A stretch of 64,000 nt of DNA from an uncultured Planctomycetia bacterium. GTDB taxonomy: Bacteria; Omnitrophota; Gorgyraeia; 2-01-FULL-45-10. The DNA is taken from NCBI GenBank assembly GCA_964352425.1, contig CAYGRZ010000001.1, forward strand, positions 64,672 through 128,671, written 5' to 3'. The notes under the pieces are model-generated. The model did no database searches and had not been told where the DNA came from. It saw nothing but the letters and a program-made list of their open reading frames with translations. Position numbers and translations under genes: made by a program. Below, one piece after another: positions 11,435 through 63,888 of this stretch (position 1 is the stretch's first letter; the number at the start of each line of letters is the position of its first letter).

Positions 11435-11461
11435 GATGAGGGGCTTAGGGCGAGCAAATTT

Positions 11462-38205: not shown

Positions 38206-38250
38206 TAGTACCGTATCTCAACGCTGAGATAGGATCCCAAAGAGCAAAGA

Positions 38251-41576: not shown

Positions 41577-41577
41577 C

Positions 41578-41700
41578 GGTTACCAAAACGAGCCCGGATT
41601 TACTTGTAGATATGTAAGTAGCTTGCTTTAAACACATTGAAGTGTGCAGCACAAAGGCGTTCTCAAGAGAGAGCGCTTTTCTATTTAGACGCAGGCGTCT
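41578..41700 (+). repeat. nitrogen-leader repeat, copy c (upstream of amt)
   Basis: Shares ggttaccaa..tttacttgta..tgtaag..cacattgNagtg..gagcgcttttYtattt with 43364-43520. Confidence 0.6.
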
Positions 41701-41758
41701 TTTGGCCCATGGAGGGGAAGAAAGGCGTCTTTTTATTGTTTAATACGGAGGAACAGCT

Positions 41759-42994: not shown

Positions 42995-43006
42995 GGGGGG
43001 TATGTC

Positions 43007-43348
43007 ATGAAACTGATAGTCGCAATACTGCAACCGGAGAAGCTTGAAGATGTCCTTCAGGAGTTGGACAGAGAAGAGATCTACTTAAAGACAGTCTCCA
43101 GCGTGCTTGGGTGCGGCCGCCAAAAAGGCCGTACCGAGGTATATAGAGGAAGGAAAGAGACCGGCAACCTCTTGAAGAAGGTCCGCCTCGAGATAGGGGT
43201 CAATGAACAATTCGTGGAGGCGACGATCCGGGCGATCGTGAGAGGCGCAAAGACAGGCACTATAGGGGACGGCAAGATATTCGTCCTGGACCTGGCAGAA
43301 TGTGTCAGGATACGGACCGGTGAAAGGGGCGGGGATGCTATAGGGTAA
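43007..43348 (+). CDS. glnB: PII nitrogen regulatory protein (GlnB/GlnK family; short T-loop without Tyr51)
   Basis: [16 protein letters not shown]...GCGRQKG...[24 protein letters not shown], colinear with E. coli GlnB. Confidence 0.85.
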
Positions 43349-43363
43349 CTTTTGTTAAAAAAT

Positions 43364-43520
43364 GGTTACCAAGCGAGGCTCCTTTTTACTTGTATAGTTG
43401 TAAGACCGGTTTTTAGGCACATTGTAGTGCATAAGTAGGCAAAGACGTTTATTTGAACATAGGCGTTCAGTTTGGTCAATGAGTATGACCAAAATGAGCG
43501 CTTTTTTATTTGAGCACATA
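43364..43520 (+). repeat. nitrogen-leader repeat, copy d (upstream of glnA; contains GCAC-attgta-GTGC and a TTGGTCA/TGACCAA hairpin)
   Basis: Aligns with 41578-41700; merges 3' into repeat R1 copy b. Confidence 0.6.
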
Positions 43521-43657
43521 ATTTATGGAGCGATAGCGACATAAATTATAAGTGCGAAAATAATCCGCCGACTAGTCCTCCGAAGCTTCGCAGAGTCTAT
43601 GAGTAGAAGCGAAGGCGGAAGCCAATCTTGACCAGAAACATACAACGGCGAAGGCGG
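43503..43657 (+). repeat. leader repeat R1, copy b (palindrome CACATAATTTATG-N11-CATAAATTATAAGTG) upstream of glnA
   Basis: Direct repeat of 38283-38447. Confidence 0.7.
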
Positions 43658-43687
43658 ATATCAACCATAGCCATAAAGGAGGGCACC

Positions 43688-45880: not shown

Positions 45881-45896
45881 TGATAATGGCGTGCAT

Positions 45897-46163
45897 ATGA
45901 TGACGATCCTGATGGAACATGATGAGAACAAGATCCGGGAGATGCTCAATCAGCTCCTGACTGAAGAGCATTCGGAAGCAAAACGCGGCATCCTGTACAG
46001 GACGATCGTCAACGCGATCGAACGACCGCTCTTCGAGCATGTGCTGGAGCGAACAGATGGCAACCAGCTCAAGGCGGCCAGGATACTGGGGATCAACCGG
46101 AATACCATGCGTGCCAAGATAAGGAAGCTCGGCATAGACGTGCATAGATGGAAGGTGCATTAA
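45897..46163 (+). CDS. stand-alone Fis-type HTH DNA-binding protein (NtrC C-terminal-domain-like)
   Basis: GNQLKAARILGINRNTMRAKIRKLGI Fis/NtrC HTH; 88 aa. Confidence 0.6.
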   Translation: MMTILMEHDENKIREMLNQLLTEEHSEAKRGILYRTIVNAIERPLFEHVLERTDGNQLKAARILGINRNTMRAKIRKLGIDVHRWKVH

Positions 46164-46164
46164 G

Positions 46165-49100: not shown

Positions 49101-50700
49101 AATAGCGCGTACACGCTATACTACGCCGGGCGTGACTTTAATATCGCCTCCACCACACCATGACATCTATTCGATCGAAGACCTGGCGCAGCTCATCTTT
49201 GACCTGAAGAACGTCAATCCCAGGGCGCGCATAAGCGTGAAGCTCGTATCGGAGGCCGGTGTCGGCACCGTCGCTGCCGGCGTCGCAAAAAGCCGCGCCG
49301 ACATGATACTGATCTCGGGCGGCGACGGCGGGACCGGGGCATCGCCCTTAAGCTCGATCAAACATGCAGGCCTCCCGTGGGAACTCGGCCTTTCCGAGAC
49401 ACACCAGACGCTGGTCCTCAATGACTTGAGAAGCCGCGTGCGGCTGCAGACGGACGGACAGATGAGGACGGGCAGGGACGTTGCCATCGCCGCACTCCTA
49501 GGCGCCGAGGAATACGGGTTCTGTACTGCCGCGCTCATCGTCCTCGGCTGCGTCATGCTGCGCCACTGCAACCTGAACAACTGCTCCGTCGGCGTCGCGA
49601 CACAGGACGATATCCTGCAGAAGCGGTTCCGCGGCAGGCCCGAATATATAATCAATTACCTGACCTTCGTTGCCCAGGAACTGCGCGAGATCATGGCCTC
49701 TCTTGGTTTCAGGACGGTCGACGAGATGATCGGCAGGACGGACCTCCTGGAAGTGAATACCGGGATACTGCCGTGGAAGGCGCAGGCAATTGATTTTTCA
49801 AAGATATTGCATAAACCCGATGTCAGGCCAGGCGTCGCTACGCATTGCACTATCAAACAGGACCATGTTATAGAGCAGATACTCGACCGAAAACTTATTG
49901 AAATGGCAAAAGCCGCCATCGACGAAGGCTGTCCTGTCAGGGTAGAGCTCGATATAACCAACCGCGACAGGGCCACAGGCGCTCACCTAAGCGGCGAGAT
50001 CTGCGCTCGCCACGGCGAGGAGGGCCTCCCTGAGGATTCCGTTCATTGCTTGTTCAAAGGCATTGCAGGCCAGAGCTTCGGGGCGTGGTTGACGAGGGGT
50101 GTGACATTCGAGCTTGAGGGGATGGCCAATGACTACGTCGGCAAGGGCATATCCGGCGGCAGGATCATCATATATCCGGACAAGAAATGCGGTTATAAAC
50201 CGGAGGAGAACGTTATCATAGGCAATACCGCCTTCTATGGCGCTATCAACGGCGAGGCATATATACGGGGAGTTGCCGGCGAGCGGTTCTGCATACGCAA
50301 CTCCGGCCTCAACGCCGTTGTCGAGGGCGTCGGCGACCACGGCTGCGAATACATGACCGGCGGAAGGATCGTGGTGCTTGGCCGCACGGGCAGGAACTTC
50401 GGGGCGGGCATGTCCGGCGGCATCGCGTACGTCTACGATGCAGACGGCACATTCAAGGATAAGTGCAATATGGAGATGGTGGAACTCGAACGGGCTTCCG
50501 TCGATGACGAGATCACGGTCAGGGAACTGGTGACCAACCACTATAAGGCAACGGGAAGCACCGTAGCGAAGAAGGTGCTTGGTGATTTCACGAACAGTAT
50601 GAAGCACATGGTCAAGGTGATGCCTATTGAATACAAGCGCGTGCTGGGCTCAAAAGAGATAGAGGCCTCGATGGACCTCTCAGAGGTGTACGATGGGTGA
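46165..50700 (+). CDS. gltB: glutamate synthase large subunit
   Basis: 1511 aa; N-terminal amidotransferase CGVGFV; FMN and Fe-S domains. Confidence 0.9.
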   Translation: MKDQRRPDRQGLYDPSFEHDACGVGFVCNIAGAASNEIVRQGIDVLKRLSHRGATGADPKTGDGAGILIQMPHEFLAHACSAIGIQLPPKGGYGTGLIFLPAQDDERTFYKQTIEKAAAEEGQKVLGWRTVPVDDSDIGTTAKETKPAIEQIFIARSADIADTLAFERALYIIRKKAENAVCESAIAHKSFFYITNLSARTISYKGLLMPGQVDGFFLDLKDPLVKSAICLVHSRYSTNTFPTWDLAQPFRFIAHNGEINTLRGNINWMKARESLLESELFGKNLKNIKPVIVPGGSDSATIDNVFELLALSGRSLSHVMMMLIPSAWERNLSIDAKQRDFYKYHACVMEPWDGPAAIVFTDGTRVGAVLDRNGLRPARYIITKNGVAVMASEAGVIDIPPQDIAHSGRLEPGRIFFINTDDSRIIHDDELKSIMAKKQPYGQWLKEALVELEDVAAHKGTGRSKAGDDVFTLMQAFGYTRDDMKYILKPMAQDGKEPIGSMGNDTPHALLSMRPQLLYAYFKQLFAQVTNPPIDPIREECVMSLDSYIGPQKNLLSESPKHCHKLHVKTPVLTNEELEKIRHIKENSFRTKTISTLFAPDNEKNLSTALDRVCAEAEAAIAHGYSFIILSDRNVGSDAAALPALAVIGAVHHHLVRKALRTHIGIIIESGEPREVHHFALLFAYGADCVNPYLAYDAVSYLIETKELDLDRKKALNNYRHAVEHGILKIISKMGISTLQSYRGAQIFEALGLHDEVIEKCFEGTVSRIGGARLETIAKETIARHRVAYPDVPYRAPILETGGLYQYKMDGEFHMWNPDTIASLQDATRENDYNKYRQFAKLVNDQSNYPTTLRGLLQFKQGTPVPIEEVEPVESIFKRFATGAMSFGSISKGAHETLAIAMNRIGGRSNTGEGGEDPARFSPLANGDSTRSAIKQVASGRFGVTTNYLVNADELQIKIAQGAKPGEGGQLPGHKVSAIIARTRYTTPGVTLISPPPHHDIYSIEDLAQLIFDLKNVNPRARISVKLVSEAGVGTVAAGVAKSRADMILISGGDGGTGASPLSSIKHAGLPWELGLSETHQTLVLNDLRSRVRLQTDGQMRTGRDVAIAALLGAEEYGFCTAALIVLGCVMLRHCNLNNCSVGVATQDDILQKRFRGRPEYIINYLTFVAQELREIMASLGFRTVDEMIGRTDLLEVNTGILPWKAQAIDFSKILHKPDVRPGVATHCTIKQDHVIEQILDRKLIEMAKAAIDEGCPVRVELDITNRDRATGAHLSGEICARHGEEGLPEDSVHCLFKGIAGQSFGAWLTRGVTFELEGMANDYVGKGISGGRIIIYPDKKCGYKPEENVIIGNTAFYGAINGEAYIRGVAGERFCIRNSGLNAVVEGVGDHGCEYMTGGRIVVLGRTGRNFGAGMSGGIAYVYDADGTFKDKCNMEMVELERASVDDEITVRELVTNHYKATGSTVAKKVLGDFTNSMKHMVKVMPIEYKRVLGSKEIEASMDLSEVYDG

Positions 50701-52138
50701 CGCGAAGGGTTTCCTGAAATTCGGAAGGGCATATCCGGGATACAGGCCGGCATGGGAGCGCCTGTCAGATTACGATGAGGTAGCCTTGCCGCGGCCGGAG
50801 ACCTTCTCCAAAGAGCAGGCCTCGCGGTGCATGGACTGCGGCACGCCGTTCTGCCACTGGGCATGCCCGATCGGCAATTACATACCCGAGTGGAACGACC
50901 ACATGTTCCGCGGACGATGGGATAAGGCGCTCGAGTTGCTCCATGCGACCAATAACTTCCCTGAGATCACCGGGAGATTATGCCCGGCGCTGTGCGAATA
51001 CGCCTGCGTTCTCGGTATCAATGATGAGGGTGTCACGATCCGGGAGAACGAGCTTGCCATTATCGAGCACGCCTTCAAGGCCGGCATGATCAAAGCACAC
51101 AGGCCGAAGAAACGGACCGGTAAAAAAGTTGCGGTTGTTGGCTCAGGGCCAGCAGGCCTTGCGGCGGCCGACCAGCTTAATAGGGCCGGCCATACCGTTA
51201 CGGTCTTCGAAAGAGACGATAAGCCTGGTGGCATACTACGCTACGGGATACCGGACTTCAAGCTGGATAAGTCGCTCCTCGACAGGCGTATTACCCTGTT
51301 GAAGAAAGAGGGCATTGAATTCATAACCGGCACATGCGTCGGCAAAGATATTATGCCGGCAAAGCTGGTAAAAGAGTATGACGCGGTCTGCTTTGCGGCA
51401 GGAAGCCGCGTCCCGCGAGACCTTACAATACCGGGCAGGGAGCTTTGCGGCATACATTTTGCAATGGATTACCTCATACAATCCAACAAAGTCGTTGCCG
51501 GCTGCAAGATCCCCGCAGATAAGCGTATCAATGCCAAAGGCAAGCACGTCGTTGTGATCGGTGGCGGCGATACCGGCGCCGACTGCGTCGGCACTGCGCA
51601 CCGGCAAGGCGCGTTATCCGTAGTCCAGATAGAGGTTTTGCCTAAGCCGCCTGAGTGCCGCACGAACGATTACTCGTGGCCTAAATATCCGCTCCTCCTA
51701 AAAACAACGACGAGCCATGAAGAGGGCGGTGAGCGCCACTGGTCGATATTAACGAAGGCGTTCACGGGCGAAGACGGCCGCGTGAACAGGATATCATGCG
51801 CCAGGATCGATTTTTCTCAAAAGGACGCTAAAAGCTGTCCGACCATGATAGAAGTGCCGAACAGCCAATTCACGATCAAGACCGACCTCGTCATCCTGGC
51901 CATCGGGTTCGTCCATCCTGAACATGACGGTCCCGTTAAAGACCTGGGGCTCGTCCTCGACAAGCGAGGAAATGTTCAAACGGGGGACGATTATCAAACC
52001 TCAGTAAAAGGGGTCTTTTCGGCCGGCGATATGAGGAGGGGTCAGTCGCTCGTAGTGTGGGCCATATCGGAAGGCAGGCGCGCCGCGCACGCGATTGATA
52101 AATATCTGATGGGCACCACCAACCTGCCTGCGATCTGA
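50693..52138 (+). CDS. gltD: glutamate synthase small subunit (NADPH)
   Basis: Cys clusters CMDCGTPFCHWACP and VAVVGSGPAGLAAA FAD/NAD-binding motif; ATG overlaps the gltB stop. Confidence 0.9.
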   Translation: MGDAKGFLKFGRAYPGYRPAWERLSDYDEVALPRPETFSKEQASRCMDCGTPFCHWACPIGNYIPEWNDHMFRGRWDKALELLHATNNFPEITGRLCPALCEYACVLGINDEGVTIRENELAIIEHAFKAGMIKAHRPKKRTGKKVAVVGSGPAGLAAADQLNRAGHTVTVFERDDKPGGILRYGIPDFKLDKSLLDRRITLLKKEGIEFITGTCVGKDIMPAKLVKEYDAVCFAAGSRVPRDLTIPGRELCGIHFAMDYLIQSNKVVAGCKIPADKRINAKGKHVVVIGGGDTGADCVGTAHRQGALSVVQIEVLPKPPECRTNDYSWPKYPLLLKTTTSHEEGGERHWSILTKAFTGEDGRVNRISCARIDFSQKDAKSCPTMIEVPNSQFTIKTDLVILAIGFVHPEHDGPVKDLGLVLDKRGNVQTGDDYQTSVKGVFSAGDMRRGQSLVVWAISEGRRAAHAIDKYLMGTTNLPAI

Positions 52139-52194
52139 TAAGGCATTGACAGCCGCACCCTGTGCTGATAAACTACCCGATAATAGGCTTAAAT

Positions 52195-52275
52195 ATGGAT
52201 ATGTTGTTCATAGGGATCATAGTCATTCTTTCTGCAGTCTCATTCCTCCTCATCGTGCTATGCGACAGCCTGTAA
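52195..52275 (+). CDS. 26-aa hydrophobic peptide (MDMLFIGIIVILSAVSFLLIVLCDSL), possible leader or KdpF-like micropeptide
   Basis: Single TM-like ORF between a candidate promoter (TTGACA at 52146) and kdpF; no clear RBS. Confidence 0.3.
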   Translation: MDMLFIGIIVILSAVSFLLIVLCDSL

Positions 52276-52288: not shown

Positions 52289-52381
52289 ATGGTAATTATT
52301 TATTGGATCGCCGGTTCTATTGCGCTTCTGTTATTTGCCTATCTCTTACTAGCGCTCCTCAAGCCGGAGATCTTTTCGTGA
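52289..52381 (+). CDS. kdpF: K+-transporting ATPase subunit F, 30 aa (not in the ORF track)
   Basis: MVIIYWIAGSIALLLFAYLLLALLKPEIFS resembles E. coli KdpF (...LLGYLVYALINAEAF); AAGGAGCGGAG RBS; its stop overlaps the kdpA GTG. Confidence 0.6.
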   Translation: MVIIYWIAGSIALLLFAYLLLALLKPEIFS

Positions 52382-54123
52382 TCTGGCATAATCTCATCCA
52401 AAGCTCCGTTTTTATCGGCGTGCTGCTTCTGGCGGTCAAGCCGCTTGGTCTCTATATGGCGCGAATATATGAGGGGAAGAGCACCGGCCTTACTGTATGG
52501 TTCGCGCCCCTAGAAAGCTCCATCTACCGCCTTTCGGGGGTTGATCCCGAAAAAGGCATGTCGTGGAAGCAATACGCTGTGGCACTGATGTTATTCAACA
52601 TCATCGGCATAGCAGCCGTCTACGCCATCCAACGTCTCCAGCCACATCTCCCTTTAAACCCTATGTCCATGCCGCCGGTGGCCCCTGATCTGGCATTTAA
52701 TACGGCGGTGAGTTTCGCGACAAATACGAACTGGCAGAGTTACGGCGGCGAAACTACATTGAGTTATTTTACGCAAATGGTTGCCCTGACAGTCCAGAAC
52801 TTCGTTTCCGCCGCGACCGGCATGGCTGTCCTTGTGGCGTTGACAAGAGGTTTTATACAAAAACAGGCCCAGACGATAGGAAATTTCTGGGTAGATCTGG
52901 TCAGGTCAACGCTATACATCCTTTTACCGCTATCACTGGCCTTATCCATCGCGCTGGTCTCGCAGGGCACAGTACAGACTTTCAGGCCATATGAGAAAGT
53001 TACGCTTATCCAGCCTGTAACAGACAGCGATGGGAAAATTGTCCGGGAACAGGTCATTGCCCTTGGTCCGGCTGCGTCGCAAATCGCTGTCAAGCAACTC
53101 GGAACGAATGGCGGCGGATTTTTCAATGTGAACTCTTCGCATCCATTCGAGAATCCGACACCCTTGTCTAATTTCCTTGAAGTCATCGCGATACTCCTGA
53201 TCCCGGCCGCATTGTGCTACACATTCGGATGCATGGTCAGGGACAGGCGTCAGGGGTGGGCACTTCTTACGGCAATGCTTATCATCTTTATTCCGTGTAT
53301 GTGGGCTTGCATGCACTTTGAACAAGCAGGCAATCCATTATTGAACAACCTATCTATCGATCAAAGAGCGACCCCCTTACAGGCCGGCGGCAACATGGAA
53401 GGAAAGGAAACCCGTTTCAGCATTGCAAGCTCCGCCATCTGGGCCACCGCCACAACAGCGGCTTCCAATGGCTCGGTGAACTCGATGCATGATTCGTACA
53501 CGCCCCTGGGGGGCATGGTCCCGATGTGGCTTATGCAGGTGGGGGAAGTGGTCTTTGGCGGAGCGGGATCGGGCCTTTACGGAATGATCGCCTTTGCGAT
53601 CCTCGCTGTTTTTATAGCCGGCCTCATGATAGGAAGGACCCCCGAGTATCTGGGAAAAAAGATCGAATCCTACGAAATGAAGATGGTGTCACTTGTGATC
53701 CTGATCCCGCCGATCATAGTTCTTCTTGGCACGGCTATATCGATCCTTGTGCCGCAGGGAAGATCGGCGATATCCAACCCCGGTCCCCATGGCTTAAGCG
53801 AGGTCCTGTATGCATTTTCGTCCGCAGGCAACAACAACGGCAGTGCCTTCGCGGGTCTTTCAACTAACAATCTTTTTTATAACATAGCTCTGGGATCGGC
53901 GATGTTTCTAGCGCGGTACTGGCTTATAATCCCGATGCTTGCTGTTGCCGGCTCGCTTTCCGGGAAGAAGAATGTCCCGGCCAGCCAGGGAACCCTGCCT
54001 ACGCATACGCCGCTTTTTATTGTGATCCTGGCCATGGTCGTATTGGTTGTCGGGGCCCTTACATTCTTTCCGGCCCTCGCATTAGGCCCAATTGCTGAGC
54101 ACGTAATGTCAGGCGGTCATTAA
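52378..54123 (+). CDS. kdpA: K+-transporting ATPase subunit A (GTG start inferred)
   Basis: KdpA-type 10-TM protein with selectivity-filter-like NGGGF; the start is placed at the GTG overlapping the kdpF stop. Confidence 0.85.
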   Translation: MIWHNLIQSSVFIGVLLLAVKPLGLYMARIYEGKSTGLTVWFAPLESSIYRLSGVDPEKGMSWKQYAVALMLFNIIGIAAVYAIQRLQPHLPLNPMSMPPVAPDLAFNTAVSFATNTNWQSYGGETTLSYFTQMVALTVQNFVSAATGMAVLVALTRGFIQKQAQTIGNFWVDLVRSTLYILLPLSLALSIALVSQGTVQTFRPYEKVTLIQPVTDSDGKIVREQVIALGPAASQIAVKQLGTNGGGFFNVNSSHPFENPTPLSNFLEVIAILLIPAALCYTFGCMVRDRRQGWALLTAMLIIFIPCMWACMHFEQAGNPLLNNLSIDQRATPLQAGGNMEGKETRFSIASSAIWATATTAASNGSVNSMHDSYTPLGGMVPMWLMQVGEVVFGGAGSGLYGMIAFAILAVFIAGLMIGRTPEYLGKKIESYEMKMVSLVILIPPIIVLLGTAISILVPQGRSAISNPGPHGLSEVLYAFSSAGNNNGSAFAGLSTNNLFYNIALGSAMFLARYWLIIPMLAVAGSLSGKKNVPASQGTLPTHTPLFIVILAMVVLVVGALTFFPALALGPIAEHVMSGGH

Positions 54124-56205
54124 ATGGCTAGAAGAAAATCATATAAGACCGTATCTTTATTCGAACCATCTATAGTGGTGCCCGCGATGGTCGAGTCTGT
54201 CAGAAAACTCGATCCCCGCCACCAGATCAAAAATCCAGTCATGTTCGTCGTGTTGGCCGGGAGCATCCTGACCAGCGGCCTCTATATCCATGCACTGATG
54301 GATCAGGCAGAGGTGCCAGCAGGCTTCATCCTGGCCATTTCTTTATGGTTGTGGTTTACGCTGATATTCGCGAATTTTGCCGAAGCGATGGCCGAAGGCC
54401 GCGGGAAGGCGCAGGCCGCGAGCCTGAGACGCGCCAGGAAAGACACGTTTGCCAAAAAGCTGCCAACGCCGAAGTACGGCGCTGATTTCGAAACAGTATC
54501 GGCTGCCACGCTTCGGAAAGGCGATATAGTCCTGGCGGAAGCCGGCGACGTTATCCCTATGGACGGTGAAGCCGTTGAAGGGATAGCGTCTGTGGACGAA
54601 AGCGCCGTTACCGGAGAAAGCGCGCCGGTCATACGCGAAAGCGGAGGGGATCGCAGCGCCGTTACCGGCGGCACGCGAGTCCTTTCCGACTGGCTTATCA
54701 TCCGTATCAGCTCAAATCAGGGAGAAACCTTCCTCGACCGCATGATCGCTATGGTAGAAGGCGCTAAACGGCAGAAGACCCCGAATGAAATTGCGCTCAG
54801 CATTTTACTCTCCGCCCTTACGATAATCTTTCTCCTGGCCACTGTAACGCTTCTTCCTCTTTCAATATACAGCGTCAGTACATCGGGCAGCGGCACTGTC
54901 GTTAGCGTAACGGTGCTTGTCGCGCTACTTGTATGCCTTATTCCGACCACGATAGGGGGGCTCCTTCCTGCCATCGGCATCGCCGGCATGGACAGGCTGA
55001 TCCAGGCGAATGTTATCGCAACATCAGGGCGCGCGGTTGAAGCTGCAGGCGATGTCGATGTGCTCCTGCTGGATAAGACGGGGACGGTAACGCTCGGTAA
55101 CAGGCAGGCCGTGGCATTCATACCCGCGCAGGGAGTCTCTGCAGAATCGCTTGCGGATGCCGCACAGCTGGCTTCTCTTTCGGATGAAACGCCGGAAGGG
55201 AGAAGCATAGTAGTGCTCGCGAAACAGAAATACGGGATCAGAGAACGGCATATACACGAACTGTCAGCAAAATTCATCCCGTTTTCAGCGCAGACACGCA
55301 TGAGCGGTGTTGAGCTCGGCGGAGGCAGGGAGATCAGGAAAGGCGCCGTTGATGCCATCGAAAAGTATGTAAAAGATCACGGTTGTGTGTTTCCTGAAGA
55401 GGTAAAAGGAAGCGTGGAAACGATCGCGAAAAGCGGCGGGACACCTCTCGTAGTTGCGGAAAATAAGCGTGTGCTCGGCGTTATCCACCTTAAAGATATC
55501 GTTAAGGGCGGAATTAAAGAGCGTTTCGCTGAGCTCCGGCGCATGGGCATCAGGACCGTAATGATAACAGGAGATAATCCTTTGACCGCCGCGGCTATCG
55601 CGGCCGAAGCCGGCATGGATAATTTCCTGGCCCAGGCAACACCGGAGAAGAAGCTCAAACTCATCCATGAAATGCAGGAAGGCGGAAGGCTTGTCGCGAT
55701 GACAGGGGACGGCACCAATGACGCGCCCGCGCTCGCCAAGGCGGACGTCGCCGTAGCGATGAATACGGGAACTCAGGCGGCTAAAGAGGCGGGCAACATG
55801 GTCGATCTCGACTCAAATCCTACCAAGCTCATCGAGATCGTCGGCATCGGAAAGCAGCTCCTGATCACGAGGGGCTCCCTGACGACCTTCAGCATCGCTA
55901 ATGATATATCGAAATATTTCGCTATCATACCGGCAGCTTTCGCCGGCACGTATCCGGCGCTCGCATCGCTCAATATAATGCATCTGGCGACGCCCCGCAG
56001 CGCTGTCTTATCGGCCGTAATATTCAACGCGGTCGTCATTATATTACTGATACCTCTCGCGATAAAAGGCGTTCCCTATAGAGCTTCGCCGGCAAGTCGG
56101 CTTTTACGCGACAATTTATTGATCTACGGGGCAGGGGGCTTCATCGCCCCTTTCCTGGGCATAAAACTCATTGATATGCTTCTTGCGGGGCTTCACCTTG
56201 TCTGA
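54124..56205 (+). CDS. kdpB: K+-transporting P-type ATPase subunit B
   Basis: DKTGTVT phosphorylation motif and [12 protein letters not shown]. Confidence 0.9.
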
Positions 56206-56222: not shown

Positions 56223-56801
56223 ATGATCGGCCAGCAATTGAGGATTGCGATTTTAATATTCATCTTTCTTACGGTAATTACCGGGGTGCTGTACCCGATT
56301 CTTATTACCGGCATATCGCAGGCATTTATCCATCATCAGGCAAACGGAAGCTTGATCTACCGAAACGGTAAAGCGGTCGGTTCTTCACTTATAGGACAGC
56401 AATTCAACGATCCTGAATACCTGTGGGGAAGGCCTTCCGCCACGTCGCCGGCGCCCTATAACTCGGCATCATCAGCCGCATCAAATATAGGACCGTCAAA
56501 CCCCGCCTTTAAGGAGATCATAGAAACGCGTATCCGAATACTGAAATCGGCCGACCCCAGGAATACCAATCCGATCCCTGTGGATCTCATTACCTCATCG
56601 GCAAGCGGCCTCGATCCGCACATCAGCCCGGCAGCTGCCTATTACCAGATCCCCAGGATCGCCAGGACGAGGGGGATACCTGAAGACGCCGTGATGAAGA
56701 TCATACAAGTCAATTCGAGCAGGCGGCTGTTCGGCTGCATCGGCGAGAACGTTGTCAATGTAGTAAAGGTTAATTTAGATTTGGGCTCTTACAAAAAATA
56801 G
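56223..56801 (+). CDS. kdpC: K+-transporting ATPase subunit C
   Basis: 192 aa with one TM; typical KdpC N-terminus and SGLDPHISP motif. Confidence 0.85.
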   Translation: MIGQQLRIAILIFIFLTVITGVLYPILITGISQAFIHHQANGSLIYRNGKAVGSSLIGQQFNDPEYLWGRPSATSPAPYNSASSAASNIGPSNPAFKEIIETRIRILKSADPRNTNPIPVDLITSSASGLDPHISPAAAYYQIPRIARTRGIPEDAVMKIIQVNSSRRLFGCIGENVVNVVKVNLDLGSYKK

Positions 56802-56809: not shown

Positions 56810-59008
56810 ATGGATATGACGGAAGAAAAGTCCGACATAGAACAGATCCTGGCGCGCGTCAAGGCCGAGGAACCCGTCCGCGGAAAACTGAAGATATTTT
56901 TCGGTGCCATGGCCGGGGTGGGGAAGACCTACTCCATGCTCGAAGCCGCACGGGTGCGCAAGAAGGAAGGTGTCGACGTGGTTGCCGGTTATGTGGAAAC
57001 GCATAAGCGTGCCGAAACCGATGCCCTTCTTGAAGGGCTGGAGATCCTGCCCGTACAGACGGTCGCCTACAAGAATATCGAGATACGTGAATTTGATATC
57101 GATGCCGCCCTCAAGCGGCACCCTTCACTCATTTTGGTTGATGAGCTGGCGCATTCGAACGCTCCCGGTTCGCGCCATGTGAAACGCTGGCAGGACGTCG
57201 AGGAGCTGCTTGACGCGGGGATCGACGTATATACGACCATGAATGTCCAGCACCTTGAAAGCGCGAATGACGTTGTTGCCCAAATCACCGGCGTGACCGT
57301 ACGGGAAACGATCCCCGATACGTTTGTGGAGAAGGCGGATGATCTGGAGCTTGTCGACCTGCCGCCCGAGGACCTTCTGAACCGCCTCAAGGAAGGCAAG
57401 GTATACCTCGGTGAACAGGCCGAGCGGGCGATCCAGAATTTCTTCCAGATAGGCAACCTTATCGCTTTACGCCAATTGGCCCTGCAGTATACCTCCAAGA
57501 TCGTAGACGCTAAGATGCGTTCCTATAAACAGGCCTATTCCATATCAAAGGTCTGGGGCGTCAAAGACCGCTTCCTGGTGTCCATCAGTCCAAGCCCCCG
57601 CGCCGTGCGATTGATCCGCGCCGGAAAGCGTATAGCTTCAAGCCTTGGCGTCGAATGGATCGTCGCCTTTGTCGAATCACCGGCTCAGGTCTACAGCAGG
57701 AAAGACAGGGCCACTACTGCCGAGATGATGCGGCTGGCCGAAAAATTGGGCGCCGAGACAGTGACGCTCAGCGGGCACAATGTCGCCGATACATTGATAG
57801 CATTCGCCCGTTCGCGTAATATAACAAAGATCGTAGCGGGAAAATCTGAAAGACGCCGCTGGCAGGAGATAATATTCGGGTCGGTGATCAATGAGCTTGC
57901 CAGGAAGTGCGGCGAAATAGACCTCTATCTTATCAGCGGGGAAACGCAGGGACAGCCTGTAAAATTTGATCTGCGGCGCCCGAAGCCTTTTTCGTGGAAA
58001 GGCCTCATCTGGGCCTTTGCGATCGTCGCTCTGTGCACCATCATGGGAAGGATGTTATCCCGGTACCTGAACATCGAAAATGTAGTAATGATATACTTGC
58101 TGGGCGTTGTGTGGATCGCGTACAGGCATGGCCTCAGGGCGTCGGCCATTGCGGCTTTTTTCAGCGTGCTGTCCTTCGATTATTTCTTTGTGCCGCCATT
58201 CTTCAGATTTGTTGTAGATGATGTCGAGAAGGATCTCATAACTTTTGCTGTCATGCTTATTGTCGGCGTTACGATAAGCGTCTTAACAGGCCGTCTAAGC
58301 CAGCAGACCGCTGCCATGCGGCTGCGGGAAAACAGGACGCAGGCCCTTTACAATCTGAGCCGTGACCTGGCAAGGACATCTAACCCCGATGAATTGTTTG
58401 AAATAGGAGGGCTCCATATACAGAAGATCTTTAGATGCCCTGTTGCTGTTTTTTCTTATGATAAGAAGAGAGGGATTGAGGCGCGTTTCGATAATTCAAA
58501 AGGTATCGCCGCCACGGAAAATGAGCAGGCTGTCGCCCACTGGGCATACCAGCACGAAAAGATAGCGGGCAGGGATACGGACACCCTCCCCGGGTCAAGA
58601 GGCTTATACCTGCCGCTTGCCGGCGCTGAAAAAGTGGTGGGGGTCATCGCCCTTTTCCCGAGAGAAGAGAAGCAATTTACAGACCCGGAGCAATTGCATA
58701 TGCTTGAGATGTATGTGAGCCAGACTGCGCTTGCAGTTGAGGGAGCGCAACTCGCTGCTGCGGCTGTCAAGGCAGAGTCCGATATCGAACATGAACGCCT
58801 GCGCAACATGCTTTTAAGCACATTCTCTTTTGATCTCCCTGCACCGTTAAAGGCTATCTCGAAAGCCGCATCGGATCTGTTACTGCAGGCAAATATCAAT
58901 GACCAGTCAAAACGGAATGATCTGATACAGAAGATCAAGGCCGAGGCTGAGCGTCTGAATAAACTGTCCCAAGAGATGACGGATATCATCAGCTCGGATA
59001 AGCAATAG
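56810..59008 (+). CDS. kdpD: KdpD-like sensor protein lacking the kinase catalytic domain (KdpD N-terminal domain + USP + 4 TM + GAF + DHp-like helix with His replaced by Phe)
   Basis: GAMAGVGKTYSML KdpD N-domain P-loop; 4 TM helices; ERLRNMLLSTFSFDLPAPL aligns to the E. coli KdpD H-box ERLRNALLAALSHDLRTPL with H to F; the ORF ends ~160 aa short of a full HK. Confidence 0.85.
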   Translation: MDMTEEKSDIEQILARVKAEEPVRGKLKIFFGAMAGVGKTYSMLEAARVRKKEGVDVVAGYVETHKRAETDALLEGLEILPVQTVAYKNIEIREFDIDAALKRHPSLILVDELAHSNAPGSRHVKRWQDVEELLDAGIDVYTTMNVQHLESANDVVAQITGVTVRETIPDTFVEKADDLELVDLPPEDLLNRLKEGKVYLGEQAERAIQNFFQIGNLIALRQLALQYTSKIVDAKMRSYKQAYSISKVWGVKDRFLVSISPSPRAVRLIRAGKRIASSLGVEWIVAFVESPAQVYSRKDRATTAEMMRLAEKLGAETVTLSGHNVADTLIAFARSRNITKIVAGKSERRRWQEIIFGSVINELARKCGEIDLYLISGETQGQPVKFDLRRPKPFSWKGLIWAFAIVALCTIMGRMLSRYLNIENVVMIYLLGVVWIAYRHGLRASAIAAFFSVLSFDYFFVPPFFRFVVDDVEKDLITFAVMLIVGVTISVLTGRLSQQTAAMRLRENRTQALYNLSRDLARTSNPDELFEIGGLHIQKIFRCPVAVFSYDKKRGIEARFDNSKGIAATENEQAVAHWAYQHEKIAGRDTDTLPGSRGLYLPLAGAEKVVGVIALFPREEKQFTDPEQLHMLEMYVSQTALAVEGAQLAAAAVKAESDIEHERLRNMLLSTFSFDLPAPLKAISKAASDLLLQANINDQSKRNDLIQKIKAEAERLNKLSQEMTDIISSDKQ

Positions 59009-59114
59009 CTGTAGCGATTGTGCGTAATTATTGTTGAGCGGTACAATGTTGTGTGTTAGTATATCTTTGATAGTTAATATAACTAGAAAGACATGGCGGG
59101 TTGGAGCCATCGGG

Positions 59115-59147
59115 GCCCACCTAGCAATAATGGTGGGCTTCTTTTTT
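59115..59147 (+). terminator. rho-independent terminator after kdpD
   Basis: GCCCACC-tagcaataat-GGTGGGC followed by TTCTTTTTT. Confidence 0.6.
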
Positions 59148-59185: not shown

Positions 59186-60631
59186 ATGAACCCTAAGATT
59201 ATTTTACTGGCAGCGGTTTTCGTTCCGATTACAGGCTCATTCTTTCTTCCTGTTATCGGCAGGCTGTCTGAGCGCATCAGGAACTTTTGCGCACTCGGCC
59301 TTGTGCTCACATCCCTGATCGCCTCGTGCACGCTTATACCATCGGTCCTGTCCGGCAATACCACAACGTTCACCCTGAACCTGCCCTTAGGATTCAATCT
59401 CATCCTTACCGCTGACTGCCTTGCAGTCTTCATGGCCATAACATCGTCGCTTATCGGTGCTATCATAGTCCTATACTCTTTTGATTACATCAGCCACTAC
59501 GACAACCGCAACGAGTACTACTTCATGGTCGCGCTCTTCCTCGGCTCGATGATGGGCATCGTCTTTTCGGGCAATCTCATATTCCTGTATATATTCTGGG
59601 AGATCACCGCGCTGGCGAGCTGGCGGCTCATCGGGTTCTTCAGGGAAAAGCGTTATGTCATGAAGGCGGACAAGGCCTTCCTCGTCACCGTTTCCGGCGC
59701 CCTGGCAATGCTGATCGGATTCATCATCATATTCTCCCAGACAGGGTCGTTCGACCTTGCCGTCATCCGACAGGGCCTGCAGGGAAGGGCTCTTCCCAAT
59801 ATCGCTGTGCTCCTGATACTCTTCGGCATACTCTCGAAGTCAGCGACGCTTCCGTTCCACACGTGGCTGCCGGATGCCGGCGTCGCTCCGTCACCGGTGA
59901 CCGCGCTCCTGCATGCCGCCATCCTCGTAAAGATAGGCGTCTACGTATTCGCGCGGCTCTTCATAGCGACATTCACCGTAAGCGCGATATGGCACACCGT
60001 GATCCCTGTCATAGCAGCCGTAAGCGCTCTCGTATCTGCCGGCGCCGCGCTTGTAGAAACGGATATGAAGCGCATAATCGCGTATTCGACCGTGAGCCAG
60101 ATCGCCTTCATATTTTTGGGGTTTGCCGTGGGCAACGAAGTCGGCATCGCCGGCGCTCTCCTGTATATACTGATGCACGGCCTGGCAAAGGGGGGACTCT
60201 TCCTGTGCGCAGGCATAGTCGAGCAGAACACGCACACCAAAGACATAACGAAGATGGGAGGCCTCATCACGACGATGCCGGTGACGGCCATATCATTCCT
60301 TGCCTGTGCATTCTCTGTCATGGGCATACCGCCGTTCGGCGGCTTCTTCTCAAAATACCTGGTCTTTTCCGGCGCTGTTACAGCCGATCATATGTGGATA
60401 ACGATCACGTTCCTTTTTGGCGCGGTCCTGACCATACTCTACCTCTTTCGGATATTTAACCACATATTCCTGTATGCGAACGATTCACAGACGCTCGATG
60501 CAAAGGAGGGGTCGCGCGTGATGGTCGCCTCGGTCGCCATCCTCGCGGTGCTGTCACTTGCGTGCGGTATCTATATACAATATCCGGCGGGTTTCGTCCA
60601 GACGACTGTCAAATATATGCTGGGTCTATAA
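59186..60631 (+). CDS. NuoN/MnhD/HyfB-family proton-conducting antiporter-like membrane subunit
   Basis: 481 aa, ~14 TM, complex-I antiporter-subunit signature (HTWLPDA, AYSTVSQ). Confidence 0.8.
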   Translation: MNPKIILLAAVFVPITGSFFLPVIGRLSERIRNFCALGLVLTSLIASCTLIPSVLSGNTTTFTLNLPLGFNLILTADCLAVFMAITSSLIGAIIVLYSFDYISHYDNRNEYYFMVALFLGSMMGIVFSGNLIFLYIFWEITALASWRLIGFFREKRYVMKADKAFLVTVSGALAMLIGFIIIFSQTGSFDLAVIRQGLQGRALPNIAVLLILFGILSKSATLPFHTWLPDAGVAPSPVTALLHAAILVKIGVYVFARLFIATFTVSAIWHTVIPVIAAVSALVSAGAALVETDMKRIIAYSTVSQIAFIFLGFAVGNEVGIAGALLYILMHGLAKGGLFLCAGIVEQNTHTKDITKMGGLITTMPVTAISFLACAFSVMGIPPFGGFFSKYLVFSGAVTADHMWITITFLFGAVLTILYLFRIFNHIFLYANDSQTLDAKEGSRVMVASVAILAVLSLACGIYIQYPAGFVQTTVKYMLGL

Positions 60632-60634
60632 AAT

Positions 60635-62452
60635 ATGAATATACTATTATTGCCCATCCTGTTACCGCTGGCCGCGGGCATCATAGCGCTCGTCATCCCG
60701 AGAAAGCTCAAAGAAGCATGGGTGCTCACGGTAACAGTGGTGAACATGGCGCTTGCCATATTCCTGTATGCAAAGAGGCTTGCCTTTACACTGCCGTGGG
60801 CTGGATCCGGCATTGAATTATCGCTGCGGCTCTACCACTTTAGCGCATTCATCATGCTTGCCACAGCCTTCTTTGGACTGCTCGTCGCACTCTATGCTAC
60901 GGCATCGCTTCGCGATAAAGGTTATGCGAAACAGTTCTTCGCATACCTTTTGCTCACCATCGGTCTTGCAAACGGCGCCGTCCTTGCCGACAACCTTGTC
61001 GCAATGCTCTTCTTCCTTGAGGGGCTTCTCGTAACGACGTTCGGCATGATCGCGATAGGCAGAAAAGAGGCGTTCAAGGCCGCCACGAAGGCATTTATTA
61101 TCATCGGTGTGGGCGACCTGTGCATGATGGTCGGCATAGCCCTGTGCGGCCACATAGGCGGCACGCTTACCATATCAAAACTCAGCATCGCGACCAGCGG
61201 CCTTGGCGGCCTGGCATTCATATTGATGATGATCGGCGCCCTCGGAAAGTCCGGATCCATGCCGCTCCATACATGGATACCGGATGCCGCGACTGAGGCG
61301 CCGCTGCCTTTCATGGCTATGCTGCCCGGCGCAATGGAGAAACTTGTGGGCATTTATCTATTGACCAGGATATCGCTCGACATCTTCAGGCTTTCGCCGC
61401 ATTCCTGGGCCAGCATGACGCTCATGATCATAGGCGCCGTCACGATCGTGGGCGCTGTCATGATGGCGCTCATCCAGAAGGACTATAAGAGGCTCCTGTC
61501 CTATCACGCCATAAGCCAGCTCGGTTACATGATACTGGGAATTGGGACTCTCGTGCCGGCAGGTATCGTTGGCGGGCTATTCCACATGATCAACAATGCC
61601 CTCTATAAGAGCTGCCTGTTCCTCACCGGCGGCTCCGTAGAGAAACAGGCCGGCACAACGAATCTCGAGGAGCTCGGCGGGCTAGGGAAGATGATGCCGG
61701 TCACATTCGGCTGCTTCATCATCACGGCGCTGGCGATATCCGGCGTGCCGCCGTTCAACGGATTCTTCTCGAAAGAGCTTGTCTATGACGGCGCGCTGGA
61801 AAGAGGCCGTATCTTCTATATTGCCGCTGTCCTCGGATCATTCCTGACAGCTGCGTCGTTCTTGAAACTCGGCCACGCCGCTTTTTTGGGAAGACCGAAC
61901 AGGGAAGGGGTAAGGGAAGCGCCGCTCGCGATGCTCGTGCCGATGATCATTATAGCGGCCTTATGCATCGTATTCGGCGTCTGGAATGCGCTTCCGCTTA
62001 AACTTTTCATCCAGCCGATACTGGGTGAGAGGCTTGCAGGCCATGATTACTCCGGAATGCACGTGAACATTATGCTCACCACCATCACTATCATTGTTCT
62101 TCTCGGCGCGCTCGCAAATCACCTCTACGGCGCAAAGAAGACCGGCAGCGGGCTTAAGGCAGCCGACCATATACATTACGCGCCATTTCTGCATCCGCTA
62201 TACGATAAGGCGGAGAAGGGGAAACTCGACCCCTACAATATTGGGATGGGCTTTACGAGCATGTTCGCGGCAGCCGCCTCATGGTGTGACGGCGCGATAA
62301 ACTGGGTCTACGACGACCTGGCCCCGGGCGCAACCGGCGCCATAAGCGCCGCGATACGGAAGTTGCATGACGGAAGTTACCGGACGTACATACTATGGTC
62401 GGTGGCCGCTCTCGCTATCGTAGTCATCGTGATGCTGAACGGATTAAGGTGA
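60635..62452 (+). CDS. NuoL/NuoM/MnhA-family proton-conducting antiporter-like membrane subunit
   Basis: 605 aa polytopic; HTWIPDA and SYHAISQLGYM motifs. Confidence 0.8.
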   Translation: MNILLLPILLPLAAGIIALVIPRKLKEAWVLTVTVVNMALAIFLYAKRLAFTLPWAGSGIELSLRLYHFSAFIMLATAFFGLLVALYATASLRDKGYAKQFFAYLLLTIGLANGAVLADNLVAMLFFLEGLLVTTFGMIAIGRKEAFKAATKAFIIIGVGDLCMMVGIALCGHIGGTLTISKLSIATSGLGGLAFILMMIGALGKSGSMPLHTWIPDAATEAPLPFMAMLPGAMEKLVGIYLLTRISLDIFRLSPHSWASMTLMIIGAVTIVGAVMMALIQKDYKRLLSYHAISQLGYMILGIGTLVPAGIVGGLFHMINNALYKSCLFLTGGSVEKQAGTTNLEELGGLGKMMPVTFGCFIITALAISGVPPFNGFFSKELVYDGALERGRIFYIAAVLGSFLTAASFLKLGHAAFLGRPNREGVREAPLAMLVPMIIIAALCIVFGVWNALPLKLFIQPILGERLAGHDYSGMHVNIMLTTITIIVLLGALANHLYGAKKTGSGLKAADHIHYAPFLHPLYDKAEKGKLDPYNIGMGFTSMFAAAASWCDGAINWVYDDLAPGATGAISAAIRKLHDGSYRTYILWSVAALAIVVIVMLNGLR

Positions 62453-62457
62453 CATAA

Positions 62458-63888
62458 ATGCCATCACTGCTCATACTGATACCGCTTTTCGGGATAGTGA
62501 TACTGAACCTTCCGTTCGGAAATGTAATGAGAAGGCTGGCGTTCTGGTTCGCATTCTCGATCTTCACCACCCAGATAATCCTGGCCATGACCCACCAGCC
62601 GATATTCTGGGGCAATGAGCTCGAGCAGATGGACGCGTTCTTCCACGTCAATTTCTCGATCGATCATCTGAGCTTTATAATGCTTCTCTGTATCGGCATC
62701 GTGTCGATCGCGAGCCTCTTAGTCACGCGAAACACCGTCCACGACCTTAAGGAGCGTTTCAAATTCATAAACCTGCTGATCATCACATCAATAGGGATGT
62801 GCGGCATCGTCATGGTGACCGACATATTCACGCTCTATGTATTCCTGGAGATCACCGCGATAGCGTCATTCATCCTGATAGCGTTCGAGAAAGACGTATA
62901 TGCCCTCGAAGGGGCCTTCAAATATATGATACTCTCGGCGGTGGCGACCGTCATGATGCTCGCATCGATCGCGCTCCTGCTGCTTGCCTCCGGAAGCACG
63001 TCGTTCGCGGATATTTCCACCGCATTACAGTCGGCCGACAATAACCTGATGCTCGTGGCTGTAGCCCTCTTCATCTGCGGCCTCTTCATAAAGGGAGGGC
63101 TGGTACCTTTCCACGGATGGGTGCCCGACGCGTATACCGCCGCCTCACCGGCAGTATCGGTGCTGCTGGCAGGCATCGTGACCAAGGTCGCGGGCATATA
63201 TACACTCATGCGGGTCGTGACCTCCATATTCGGTTTCGGCGCGAACATCAAGGCGCTCCTCATGGTGTTCGGGACCATATCGATAATCGTCGGCGCGTTC
63301 GCGGCGATAGGGCAGAAGGACTTCAAGCGCATGCTCGCATACTCGAGCATCAGCCAGGTCGGATATATCGTGCTGGGCTTCGGTTGCGGCACCGCGCTCG
63401 GAATAGCGGGCGCGGTCTTCCACCTCTTCAACCATTCGATATTCAAGTCGCTCCTCTTCGTGAACTCGGCCGCGATCGAAACGCGCCTCGGCACGACCGA
63501 CATGGATAAGATGGGAGGCCTCTCCGCCAGGATGCCGTTCACGGGTGCGACATCGGTAATAGGGATGCTCTCGGCCGCCGGCATACCGCCTCTTTCGGGA
63601 TTCTGGTCAAAGCTTATCATTATAATCGCGCTGTGGCAGGCACAGCACACGGCGTACGCCGCGATCGCGGTCGGCGCGAGCATACTGACGCTGGCATATC
63701 TCCTGGTCATGCAGCGGAAGGTCTTCTTCGGCAAACTCGGCCCCGGCCTCGAGGACACGGTCGAAGCCCGGCCCGGGATAACGGCCGCCGCTGTCATGCT
63801 TGCGGCTATCCTGGTCGGCACGGGCGTATTTTTCCCGGCGGCCTACAGAATTTTTATAGTCCCCATCCAGGAGATGCTCATAAAATGA
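62458..63888 (+). CDS. NuoM/NuoN/MnhD-family antiporter-like membrane subunit
   Basis: 476 aa; HGWVPDAY and AYSSISQVGY motifs. Confidence 0.8.
   Translation: MPSLLILIPLFGIVILNLPFGNVMRRLAFWFAFSIFTTQIILAMTHQPIFWGNELEQMDAFFHVNFSIDHLSFIMLLCIGIVSIASLLVTRNTVHDLKERFKFINLLIITSIGMCGIVMVTDIFTLYVFLEITAIASFILIAFEKDVYALEGAFKYMILSAVATVMMLASIALLLLASGSTSFADISTALQSADNNLMLVAVALFICGLFIKGGLVPFHGWVPDAYTAASPAVSVLLAGIVTKVAGIYTLMRVVTSIFGFGANIKALLMVFGTISIIVGAFAAIGQKDFKRMLAYSSISQVGYIVLGFGCGTALGIAGAVFHLFNHSIFKSLLFVNSAAIETRLGTTDMDKMGGLSARMPFTGATSVIGMLSAAGIPPLSGFWSKLIIIIALWQAQHTAYAAIAVGASILTLAYLLVMQRKVFFGKLGPGLEDTVEARPGITAAAVMLAAILVGTGVFFPAAYRIFIVPIQEMLIK

Follow-up and report, generated by a model that had tools for sequence, protein, structure and literature searches.

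A KdpD-like potassium sensor without histidine-kinase parts, and with a putative serine-kinase domain, encoded at the end of a kdpFABC operon

The window, by which is meant the whole 64-kb stretch of DNA that was analysed, carries a kdp operon on its forward strand, and all coordinates given here are window positions on that strand. The kdpF gene (52289-52381, 30 aa) matched Potass_KdpF at 6e-6 and scored 27.4 with TIGR02115, for which the cutoff is 26.85. Its stop codon is overlapped by the GTG start of kdpA (52378-54123; Pfam KdpA 4.6e-248, TIGR00680), which was taken from the L002 gene call and the sequence. The kdpB gene (54124-56205) scored 1062 bits with TIGR01497, and its product shares 70% identity with E. 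coli KdpB, with the TGES motif intact in the alignment (S166 corresponds to E. coli S162, and the preceding Glu is E165). With kdpC (56223-56801; Pfam KdpC 4.5e-70), the kdpFABC set is complete, as a preliminary description of this DNA had stated. A kdpD-like gene lies downstream of kdpC (56810-59008).

The best consensus match to a sigma-70-like promoter in the region (TTGACA-17-TAAACT with TG before the -10 element, 52146-52174, 10 of 12 consensus positions) falls within the 56 nt that separate the gltD stop from a micro-ORF preceding kdpF. This promoter was looked for in the loci of relatives and not found there. At the other end of the operon, an intrinsic terminator (59112-59147) consists of a hairpin followed by UUCUUUUUU. 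The 10-bp stem (59112-59141) and subsequent U-run, with a folding energy of -23.9 kcal/mol (z = -2.2), support the rho-independent terminator earlier placed at 59115-59147. It lies inside the gap of 177 nt that separates kdpD from a complete antiporter gene, and the downstream genes encode Proton_antipo_M subunits by Pfam, in agreement with the antiporter assignment made earlier.

The kdpD-like gene encodes a protein of 732 aa, delimited by its ORF, Pfam, NCBIfam and an alignment with E. coli KdpD, with which it shares its domain order and 41% identity across residues 1-730. The KdpD N-terminal domain, a putative atypical serine kinase (56879-57499, aa 24-230; Pfam, E. coli alignment), gave a Foldseek TM-score of 0.82 against 2r8r and contains a Walker A motif (G32-x5-G38K39T40), Y41, a Walker B motif (D111/E112) and R192. 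It is followed by a Usp domain (57572-57910, aa 255-367; Pfam; TM-score 0.90 against 7ji4), a four-helix transmembrane domain of the DUF4118 type (58007-58321, aa 400-504; Pfam and AF2, with helices at 396-416, 422-440, 442-460 and 472-520) and a GAF_3 domain (58385-58741, aa 526-644; Pfam; TM-score 0.86 against 4y2f, the E. coli KdpD GAF domain). The remaining C-terminal part is a DHp-like helical hairpin without the phospho-acceptor His (58772-59002, aa 655-731), recognised by alignment, conservation profile, AF2 and weak profile matches.

E. coli KdpD H673 is replaced in the alignment by F674 (codon 58829-58831, context LLSTFSFDLPAPL), and the H+4 phosphatase position, which is T or N in this setting (E. 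coli T677), is A678. The last residue of the protein aligns to E. coli residue 730, and Pfam gave no HisKA or HATPase_c match in the 732 aa. The NCBIfam KdpD equivalog model NF007793 aligned over residues 5-724 (model positions 5-722 of 895) with a score of 673 bits, below its cutoff of 1123. The Pfam results and the alignment thus bear out what had been reported of the protein, namely a His-to-Phe replacement and an absent CA domain next to a retained N-terminal domain, USP region, four TM helices and GAF domain. The statement that it ends within a DHp-like helix does not hold, as both DHp-like helices are kept in the AF2 model (626-675/677-691 and 699-731) and the end falls at the DHp/CA boundary. 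A PDB profile search with the hairpin gave weak matches to histidine-kinase DHp domains, including KdpD 6lgq (E 0.006-0.2); since these are weak, DHp homology is drawn mainly from the collinear alignment with full-length KdpD. The window protein is a KdpD-like K+ sensor stripped of its histidine-kinase parts, with the putative serine-kinase domain kept.

The same architecture was common to all of at least 120 homologues, mostly from Omnitrophota MAGs. The best 120 are all 681-733 aa long, and 720-733 aa with the exception of one partial sequence. In a neighbour-joining tree without support values, the short KdpDs are monophyletic, and their clade lies within the full-length KdpDs. The short KdpD has secondarily lost its histidine-kinase function, with the CA domain, the phospho-acceptor His and the H+4 phosphatase residue all gone. 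Residues G32, G38, K39, T40, D111, E112 and R192 are invariant in 119 of 119 family members, and Y41 takes the place of E. coli W39 in 117 of them. The hairpin matches the Usp and GAF domains in conservation, with a mean entropy of 0.95 bits. Few positions vary more than that of the His (S in 56 sequences, Y in 22, L in 21, M in 12, F in 4, T in 3 and H in one, P0053), and H+4 is E, A or G instead of T/N. This free position is flanked by T671 and L690 together with the near-invariant F672, S673, L676, P679, L680 and I683, and the conservation profile places the remnant under purifying selection. Public records name the short KdpDs 'sensor histidine kinase KdpD', a label that is wrong, and they are covered by neither NCBIfam model (NF007793, NF038185).

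Taken by itself, the lack of the last third of a canonical KdpD could point to a pseudogene, or to a normal kdpD that an assembly error or an artefactual frameshift has cut short. This reading is effectively refuted already by the selection on the remnant and by the shared C-terminal end of all of the at least 120 homologues, which come from independent assemblies and are 60-79% identical. Only 177 nt with a terminator precede the complete antiporter gene, and all frames of the 64 kb were free of KdpE-like and CA-like sequence; with the CA domain, DHp and KdpE of E. coli as queries, tblastn of the window gave only E >= 2. The earlier view that no frameshift hides a kinase domain, and that kdpE is not nearby, is upheld by these searches. 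A pseudogene-like break in the kdpD of one relative (L011) was traced to masked N runs.

Silberberg et al. 2024 (Nat Commun 15:3223, PMC11018627) described the corresponding N-terminal domain of E. coli KdpD as an atypical serine kinase with an inhibitory action on KdpB. E. coli KdpD lacking residues 663-894 and the fragment KdpD(1-230) still phosphorylate KdpB Ser162, mutation of Walker A, Walker B or W39/R190 abolishes this phosphorylation, and the Deinococcus geothermalis KdpD also phosphorylates KdpB (PMC11018627). In the same work, a 'Truncated DHpCA domain' class of KdpD was found in 61 of 5495 species (mainly Archaea, Campylobacterota and some Pseudomonadota), 54 of them without KdpE, and was interpreted as a KdpB regulator that acts only as a serine kinase (PMC11018627).

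The window gene belongs to this truncated-DHpCA class, a type on record since 2024. Like members of the class, it encodes a Walker A/B N-terminal domain with Usp, TM and GAF modules and no functional DHp or CA domain, and like them, usually without KdpE, it ends the kdp operon with no local KdpE. The aromatic/Arg adenine pair is present as Y41/R192, the histidine-kinase requirements are absent, the gene lies downstream of kdpC, and KdpB has E165/S166. Omnitrophota are absent from the data set behind the class (PMC11018627). Several other truncated forms stop after the GAF domain (about 655-675 aa), whereas the window clade keeps the full conserved His-less hairpin, and, as a further difference from the truncated DHpCA class, this clade has at least three modes of transcriptional control. 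Compared with full-length E. coli KdpD, a tandem serine/histidine kinase, the serine-kinase residues are all present save for the W39-to-Y41 change; H673, T677 and the CA domain are missing, and no kdpE follows the gene. Judged as a canonical KdpD, the protein has the N-terminal domain, Usp, four TM helices and GAF, and lacks the His, the H+4 residue, the CA domain, the model score and an adjacent kdpE. The 'KdpD-like non-kinase potassium sensor' of NF038185 (Anabaena, Deinococcus, Bacteroidota) is likewise a non-kinase homologue encoded after kdpC, but these proteins are soluble, about 370 aa long (373) and without TM or GAF, unlike the 732-aa window protein with its membrane sensor modules, which scored 383 bits against a cutoff of 550.

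Beyond the architecture, losses, conservation pattern and local context of the gene, which were observed directly, the most likely function of the window KdpD, and in our judgement a probable one, is post-translational inhibition of KdpFABC through the serine kinase of the N-terminal domain. When K+ is sufficient, sensing by the TM/GAF modules, and possibly also a Usp ligand, would activate the N-terminal domain, which would then phosphorylate the TGES serine of KdpB (S166), and the KdpFABC pump would be shut down post-translationally. The His-less hairpin would serve only as a helical bundle for dimerisation and signal relay. Transcription of the operon would lie outside the control of this protein and would probably start from the sigma-70 promoter, which is close to consensus, and be either constitutive or regulated by something that the window does not show. 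We infer the serine-kinase activity by extrapolation from the E. coli and D. geothermalis proteins, and likewise the K+ dependence, the hairpin role and the promoter use; the Tyr at the position of E. coli W39 is a point against serine-kinase activity. The preliminary description had argued that His-Asp phosphotransfer could not come from this protein, and this agrees with the missing His, CA domain and H+4 T/N and with the missing kdpE nearby.

Relatives' loci show how kdp transcription can be arranged around the same short KdpD. A c-di-AMP riboswitch (RF00379) lies directly upstream of the kdp operon in L005, L006 and L091 (75.6, 59.9 and 75.6 bits), three of the 11 family loci, with the aptamer upstream of kdpF; the kdp operon of Bacillus thuringiensis is likewise under a c-di-AMP riboswitch (PMC6488665). 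One of the 11 loci, L089, has a separate kinase and KdpE. Its short KdpD (P0005) is 73% identical to the window protein, and directly upstream of its kdpFABC is a 495-aa DUF4118-GAF-HisKA-HATPase_c kinase with a canonical H-box (SISHDLRTPL) and 35% identity to residues 398-883 of E. coli KdpD; next to this TM-GAF-DHpCA kinase is a regulator resembling KdpE (206 bits). KdpE was found within 10 kb in none of the first eight family loci, compared with adjacency in nearly all loci with full-length KdpD. Since the same short KdpD occurs with three transcriptional set-ups, its role is argued to be independent of transcription, and such variety within one clade (riboswitch, kinase/KdpE pair or neither) shows that Kdp control at the transcriptional level evolves independently of that at the post-translational level.

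The arrangement in L089 gives a precedent for the earlier suggestion of a split kinase encoded elsewhere, although nothing of the sort is visible in the window. Under such a split two-component system, a TM-GAF-DHpCA kinase and KdpE elsewhere in the genome would run kdp transcription, and the short KdpD would be the serine-kinase half. A class 'Truncated DHpCA + TM, GAF, DHpCA' is on record in 33 of 5495 species (PMC11018627). For the window we consider this rather unlikely: no kinase/KdpE pair was found in the 52 kb upstream or the 5 kb downstream, 10 of 11 loci have no such pair within 10 kb, including L088 (75% identity, the closest relative with context), and where pairs exist they normally adjoin kdp. 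A split system complements the serine-kinase explanation and does not contradict it. A Pfam search of about 49 of the 53 larger window ORFs found no response regulator, kinase or diadenylate cyclase; the view covers 64 kb, and a kinase/KdpE pair or a diadenylate cyclase could sit elsewhere in the genome.

Control by c-di-AMP had also been offered earlier, and the three riboswitch loci, which indicate that the lineage uses c-di-AMP for Kdp control, supply precedents for it. The nucleotide would switch the serine kinase by binding to Usp, or a riboswitch would control transcription, or both. For transcription, searches of the window at the gathering threshold and at E<=10 both gave no riboswitch, and there is no room for one in the leader because the gap is only 56 nt. 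For Usp, the S. aureus motif SXS-X20-FTAXY (PMC4686210) is matched by a hybrid, S260-x-S262-X20-W283-I-V-A-F287, in which the SxS part and the 20-residue spacing are correct; most family members have Tyr at the S. aureus Y271 position, and c-di-AMP activates the D. geothermalis KdpD (PMC11018627). The second half of the motif, however, is of the E. coli type (RxxxR-X8-W-x-V-A-Y/F, with R270xxxR274 also present; W-[IT]-V-A-Y in the family), not FTAxY, and the window protein has Phe at the Tyr position. With the retained TM/GAF modules for K+ sensing making a nucleotide input unnecessary, and no diadenylate cyclase among the window ORFs scanned, c-di-AMP control appears doubtful here.

In L011 and L089 the short kdpD is followed directly by the gene for a PAS-HisKA-HATPase_c kinase. 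This kinase was rejected as a general split partner, as it is without TM/GAF, scores 34 bits against KdpD CA and occurs in one lineage. This neighbour, and the conservation of a catalytically dead hairpin, would also fit a role of the hairpin as an interaction surface that heterodimerises with or titrates another histidine kinase or response regulator, signalling by contact instead of, or besides, serine phosphorylation. We regard this as quite improbable, given that the PAS kinase adjoins kdpD in a single family lineage and that homodimerisation and signal relay explain the conservation of the hairpin equally well.

With the serine-kinase explanation, a candidate phylum, Omnitrophota (at least 120 sequence clusters), is added to the KdpD variants without two-component signalling that keep the serine-kinase domain and a membrane K+ sensor. 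The short KdpD corresponds, as a natural protein, to the E. coli construct from which DHp/CA was deleted, and it would suit the study of TM/GAF control of the serine kinase free of histidine-kinase interference.

The most novel side observation concerns the micro-ORF beside kdpF, found in several phyla. It is a conserved hydrophobic reading frame of 26 aa, MDMLFIGIIVILSAVSFLLIVLCDSL (52195-52275), directly upstream of kdpF, and 10 of the 11 family loci have a homologue of it next to kdpF. It has no match in Pfam or NCBIfam, and nothing relevant was found in the literature on a second small ORF next to kdpF or on Kdp in Omnitrophota. As a tentative proposal, the micro-ORF may encode an undescribed small Kdp subunit or regulator, and the His-less hairpin may act as a pseudo-kinase relay from the TM/GAF sensor to the serine kinase or as a recruiter of partners. 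The micro-ORF was seen next to kdpF in loci of Omnitrophota, Acidobacteriota, Elusimicrobia, Myxococcota, Planctomycetota and Proteobacteria.

The ORF at 56810-59008 (+) proved genuine; in its 732-aa product Pfam identified a KdpD domain (aa 24-230, 1e-95), a Usp domain (aa 255-367), the four-helix TM domain DUF4118 (aa 400-504) and GAF_3 (aa 526-644), with no match to HisKA or HATPase_c. Residues 5-724 correspond to positions 5-722 of the 895 in the NCBIfam KdpD equivalog model, against which the protein scored 673 bits, far under the 1123-bit cutoff. In the alignment with E. coli KdpD (reference sequence from NC_000913; 41% identity), E. coli H673 corresponded to F674 in the context LLSTFSFDLPAPL, Ala was found at H+4, where E. 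coli has the phosphatase residue T677, and the C-terminal residue fell at E. coli position 730, the DHp/CA boundary. This alignment and the lack of HATPase_c agree with the preliminary description, which reported that Phe replaced the H-box His and that the CA domain was absent. It was correct overall, except that it placed the end within a DHp-like helix. In the AlphaFold2 model (helices 626-675/677-691, a turn, and a helix at 699-731; pLDDT 73-90 across that region), both predicted DHp-like helices are retained. A profile built from the last 93 residues gave weak matches to histidine-kinase DHp domains (LvrB 0.006, KdpD 6lgq 0.056, also ZraS and EnvZ).

Among the best 120 database matches to the short KdpD, identity was 60-79%, length was 720-733 aa (save one partial of 681 aa), and the C-terminal end was common to all; sources, where named, were mostly Candidatus Omnitrophota MAGs. 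No tblastn match (E ≥ 2) to the E. coli CA domain, DHp region or KdpE was obtained when all frames of the 64 kb were searched, phmmer over all window ORFs of at least 80 aa likewise found no CA- or KdpE-like sequence, and Response_reg, HisKA, HATPase_c and DisA_N were absent from ~49 of the 53 larger window ORFs in a Pfam scan. The common end and the lack of a CA match rule out an artefact; no frame of the window hides a kinase domain, a possibility that the preliminary description had named as one that would refute it, and its claim that kdpE is missing holds within the 64-kb window.

At the 50%-identity level the family of these homologues reduces to one representative, the protein P0076, and its closest kin outside the family are full-length KdpDs, ~900 aa long and 45-50% identical. 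In a rough NJ tree the family formed one clade nested among full-length KdpDs, and most other truncated KdpDs lay closest to a full-length KdpD; on this sequence evidence the kinase module was apparently lost several times, independently. Other truncations, of ~655-690 aa, stop directly after GAF with no DHp remnant (protein P0123 and, in loci L050, L052 and L056, 4006-5985, 9944-12019 and 6999-8987, respectively), and occur in Sedimentisphaerales, Phycisphaerae and other lineages. Several His-less, CA-less proteins (P0007, P0016, P0017, P0036 and others) are publicly named 'sensor histidine kinase KdpD'; because such proteins score below cutoff with the NCBIfam KdpD model as well as with KdpD_non_kinase, there is an annotation gap.

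In the window, kdpF (52289-52381, +), kdpA, kdpB and kdpC were all found upstream of the short kdpD, so kdpFABC is complete, as had been stated. Downstream, a -23.9 kcal/mol hairpin and the U-run after it (59112-59147) fit the rho-independent terminator proposed earlier, and the next gene, starting at 59186, is indeed a complete antiporter subunit gene (Proton_antipo_M by Pfam) and not kdpE.

Eleven distinct family loci were compared (the window, L003, L005, L006, L008, L009, L010, L088, L089/L011, L090 and L091). The short kdpD directly follows kdpC in all except L089, where a BBP2 porin-like gene (8687-9964) lies between them. No KdpE-like gene was found within 10 kb in any of the eight family loci of the first screen; nearly all loci of other phyla that encode a full-length KdpD have KdpE directly downstream. 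In L089 (short KdpD 73% identical to that of the window), the region upstream of kdpF (1415-3601) encodes a KdpE-like regulator and also a stand-alone kinase of DUF4118-GAF-HisKA-HATPase_c architecture that has a canonical H-box. A split kinase/KdpE pair elsewhere in the window's own genome is improbable in our estimation. In L005 (5071-5225, 75.6 bits), L006 (4893-5081, 59.9 bits) and L091 (4975-5143, 75.6 bits), a c-di-AMP riboswitch (RF00379) immediately precedes the kdp operon. Neither feature was seen in the window, L003, L008, L009, L010, L088 or L090, and the window's kdp leader gave no riboswitch even at E ≤ 10. Between the gltD stop and the first kdp-leader ORF of the window there are just 56 nt; this gap contains a near-consensus sigma-70 promoter (TTGACA-17-TAAACT, TG upstream), which is only a hint because it was not found conserved in family relatives.

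E. coli KdpD phosphorylates KdpB S162 at high K+, inhibiting KdpFABC, through its N-terminal Walker A/B domain (Silberberg et al. 2024, PMC11018627). H673 and DHp/CA are not needed, since activity persists both in KdpD minus residues 663-894 and in the 1-230 fragment. In that paper's survey of 5495 species, 61 fell in the 'Truncated DHpCA domain' class (54 without KdpE) and 33 in the 'Truncated DHpCA + TM, GAF, DHpCA' class, and truncated KdpDs were interpreted as regulators via the serine kinase only. The phenomenon is thus explained in principle by published work; as Omnitrophota were not found in that data set, the window's short KdpD belongs to a class already described, in a lineage new to it.

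Across 119 family members, Walker A G32, G38, K39 and T40, Walker B D111 and E112, and R192 were invariant, positions essential for serine-kinase activity (PMC11018627); the E. coli adenine-stacking W39 is Tyr in 117. The DHp-like hairpin was conserved about as well as the Usp, TM and GAF domains (mean entropy 0.95 bits for helix 1; 0.96, 1.14 and 1.11, respectively), with T671 and L690 invariant and F672, S673, L676, P679, L680 and I683 nearly so. The former His column was among the most variable (S56, Y22, L21, M12, F4, T3; H only in protein P0053), and H+4 was E, A or G. Conservation of the hairpin together with variability of the His column therefore indicates, at the level of sequence, that the hairpin is probably maintained for its structure, not as a site of phosphorylation. 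KdpB of the window is 70% identical to that of E. coli, with its TGES motif intact (E165/S166 = E. coli E161/S162).

The best-supported reading is that the short KdpD is a K+-sensing regulator acting through the serine kinase only. Its TM/GAF modules would sense K+, the His-less hairpin would serve in dimerisation and signal relay, and under K+-replete conditions the N-domain would phosphorylate KdpB S166 and turn the pump off; kdp transcription would be controlled by something else. The observation in the preliminary description is thus confirmed, and its interpretation, that regulation bypasses His-Asp phosphotransfer from this protein, is supported in part. c-di-AMP, which it suggested as one possible means of control, might act via the Usp domain, whose motif is a hybrid: SxS has the correct, S. 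aureus-type spacing and the Tyr position is Tyr in most family members, but RxxxR-X8-W.. is of E. coli type and the window protein has Phe.

A hydrophobic micro-ORF of 26 aa directly adjoins kdpF in the window (52195-52275, +) and is conserved in 10 of the 11 family loci (consensus MDILF..II..L...SF.FI.LC.K[LV]; L003 5372-5452, L005 5271-5351, L006 5130-5210, L008 5372-5452, L009 5215-5295, L010 5374-5457, L088 5386-5466, L089 4025-4105, L091 5287-5367). Recognisable homologues beside kdpF occur in Acidobacteriota, Elusimicrobia, Myxococcota, Planctomycetota, Burkholderiales, Gammaproteobacteria and Chromobacterium loci (L018 5566-5670, L033 6965-7045, L041 5518-5613, L045 12809-12889, L052 5360-5440, L053 5293-5385, L058 9730-9816, L078 5026-5118), and across phyla they have 26-34 aa and the pattern MD[IV][LV][FY]...LC.[KR][LV]. 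The product matched no Pfam or NCBIfam family and a literature search found no paper describing a micro-ORF beside kdpF; it may be an unrecognised Kdp-associated small protein.

EIIA-Ntr binds E. coli KdpD. In the Elusimicrobia locus L015, an EIIA-Ntr-like domain (PTS_EIIA_2 by Pfam) appears fused to a KdpD-like protein (9998-12460) in place of DHp/CA. The KdpD-like protein of a second Elusimicrobia locus, L033 (8672-11248), also lacks DHp/CA, and the same replacement is presumed because it resembles the L015 protein in size and gene surroundings, Pfam having been run on the L015 protein only. Both loci have a separate kinase and KdpE upstream.

Directly upstream of kdp in the window is a nitrogen-assimilation cluster (35574-52138: GAF-ANTAR regulator, NAD synthase, PPDK_N protein, Amt, PII, GS type III, and GOGAT large and small subunits), and the GOGAT/NAD-synthase/PPDK neighbourhood is also present in L088. 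At 33591-34607, an ORF encodes pentapeptide repeats together with an Ion_trans_2 (two-TM K+ channel-like) domain, near a STAS-PilZ fusion (32881-33594) and PilZ proteins (22081-22491 and 29427-29957). Mrp/Nuo-like antiporter subunit clusters recur a few kb downstream of family kdp operons (window 59186-63888, L089 17678-22193, L090 13682-20379, L091 20526-22181). The presence of NiFe-hydrogenase and Complex1_49kDa genes in that of L090 suggests an Mbh/Mbx-type complex, and in L089 an nhaA-I (Na+) riboswitch lies at 15522-15581.
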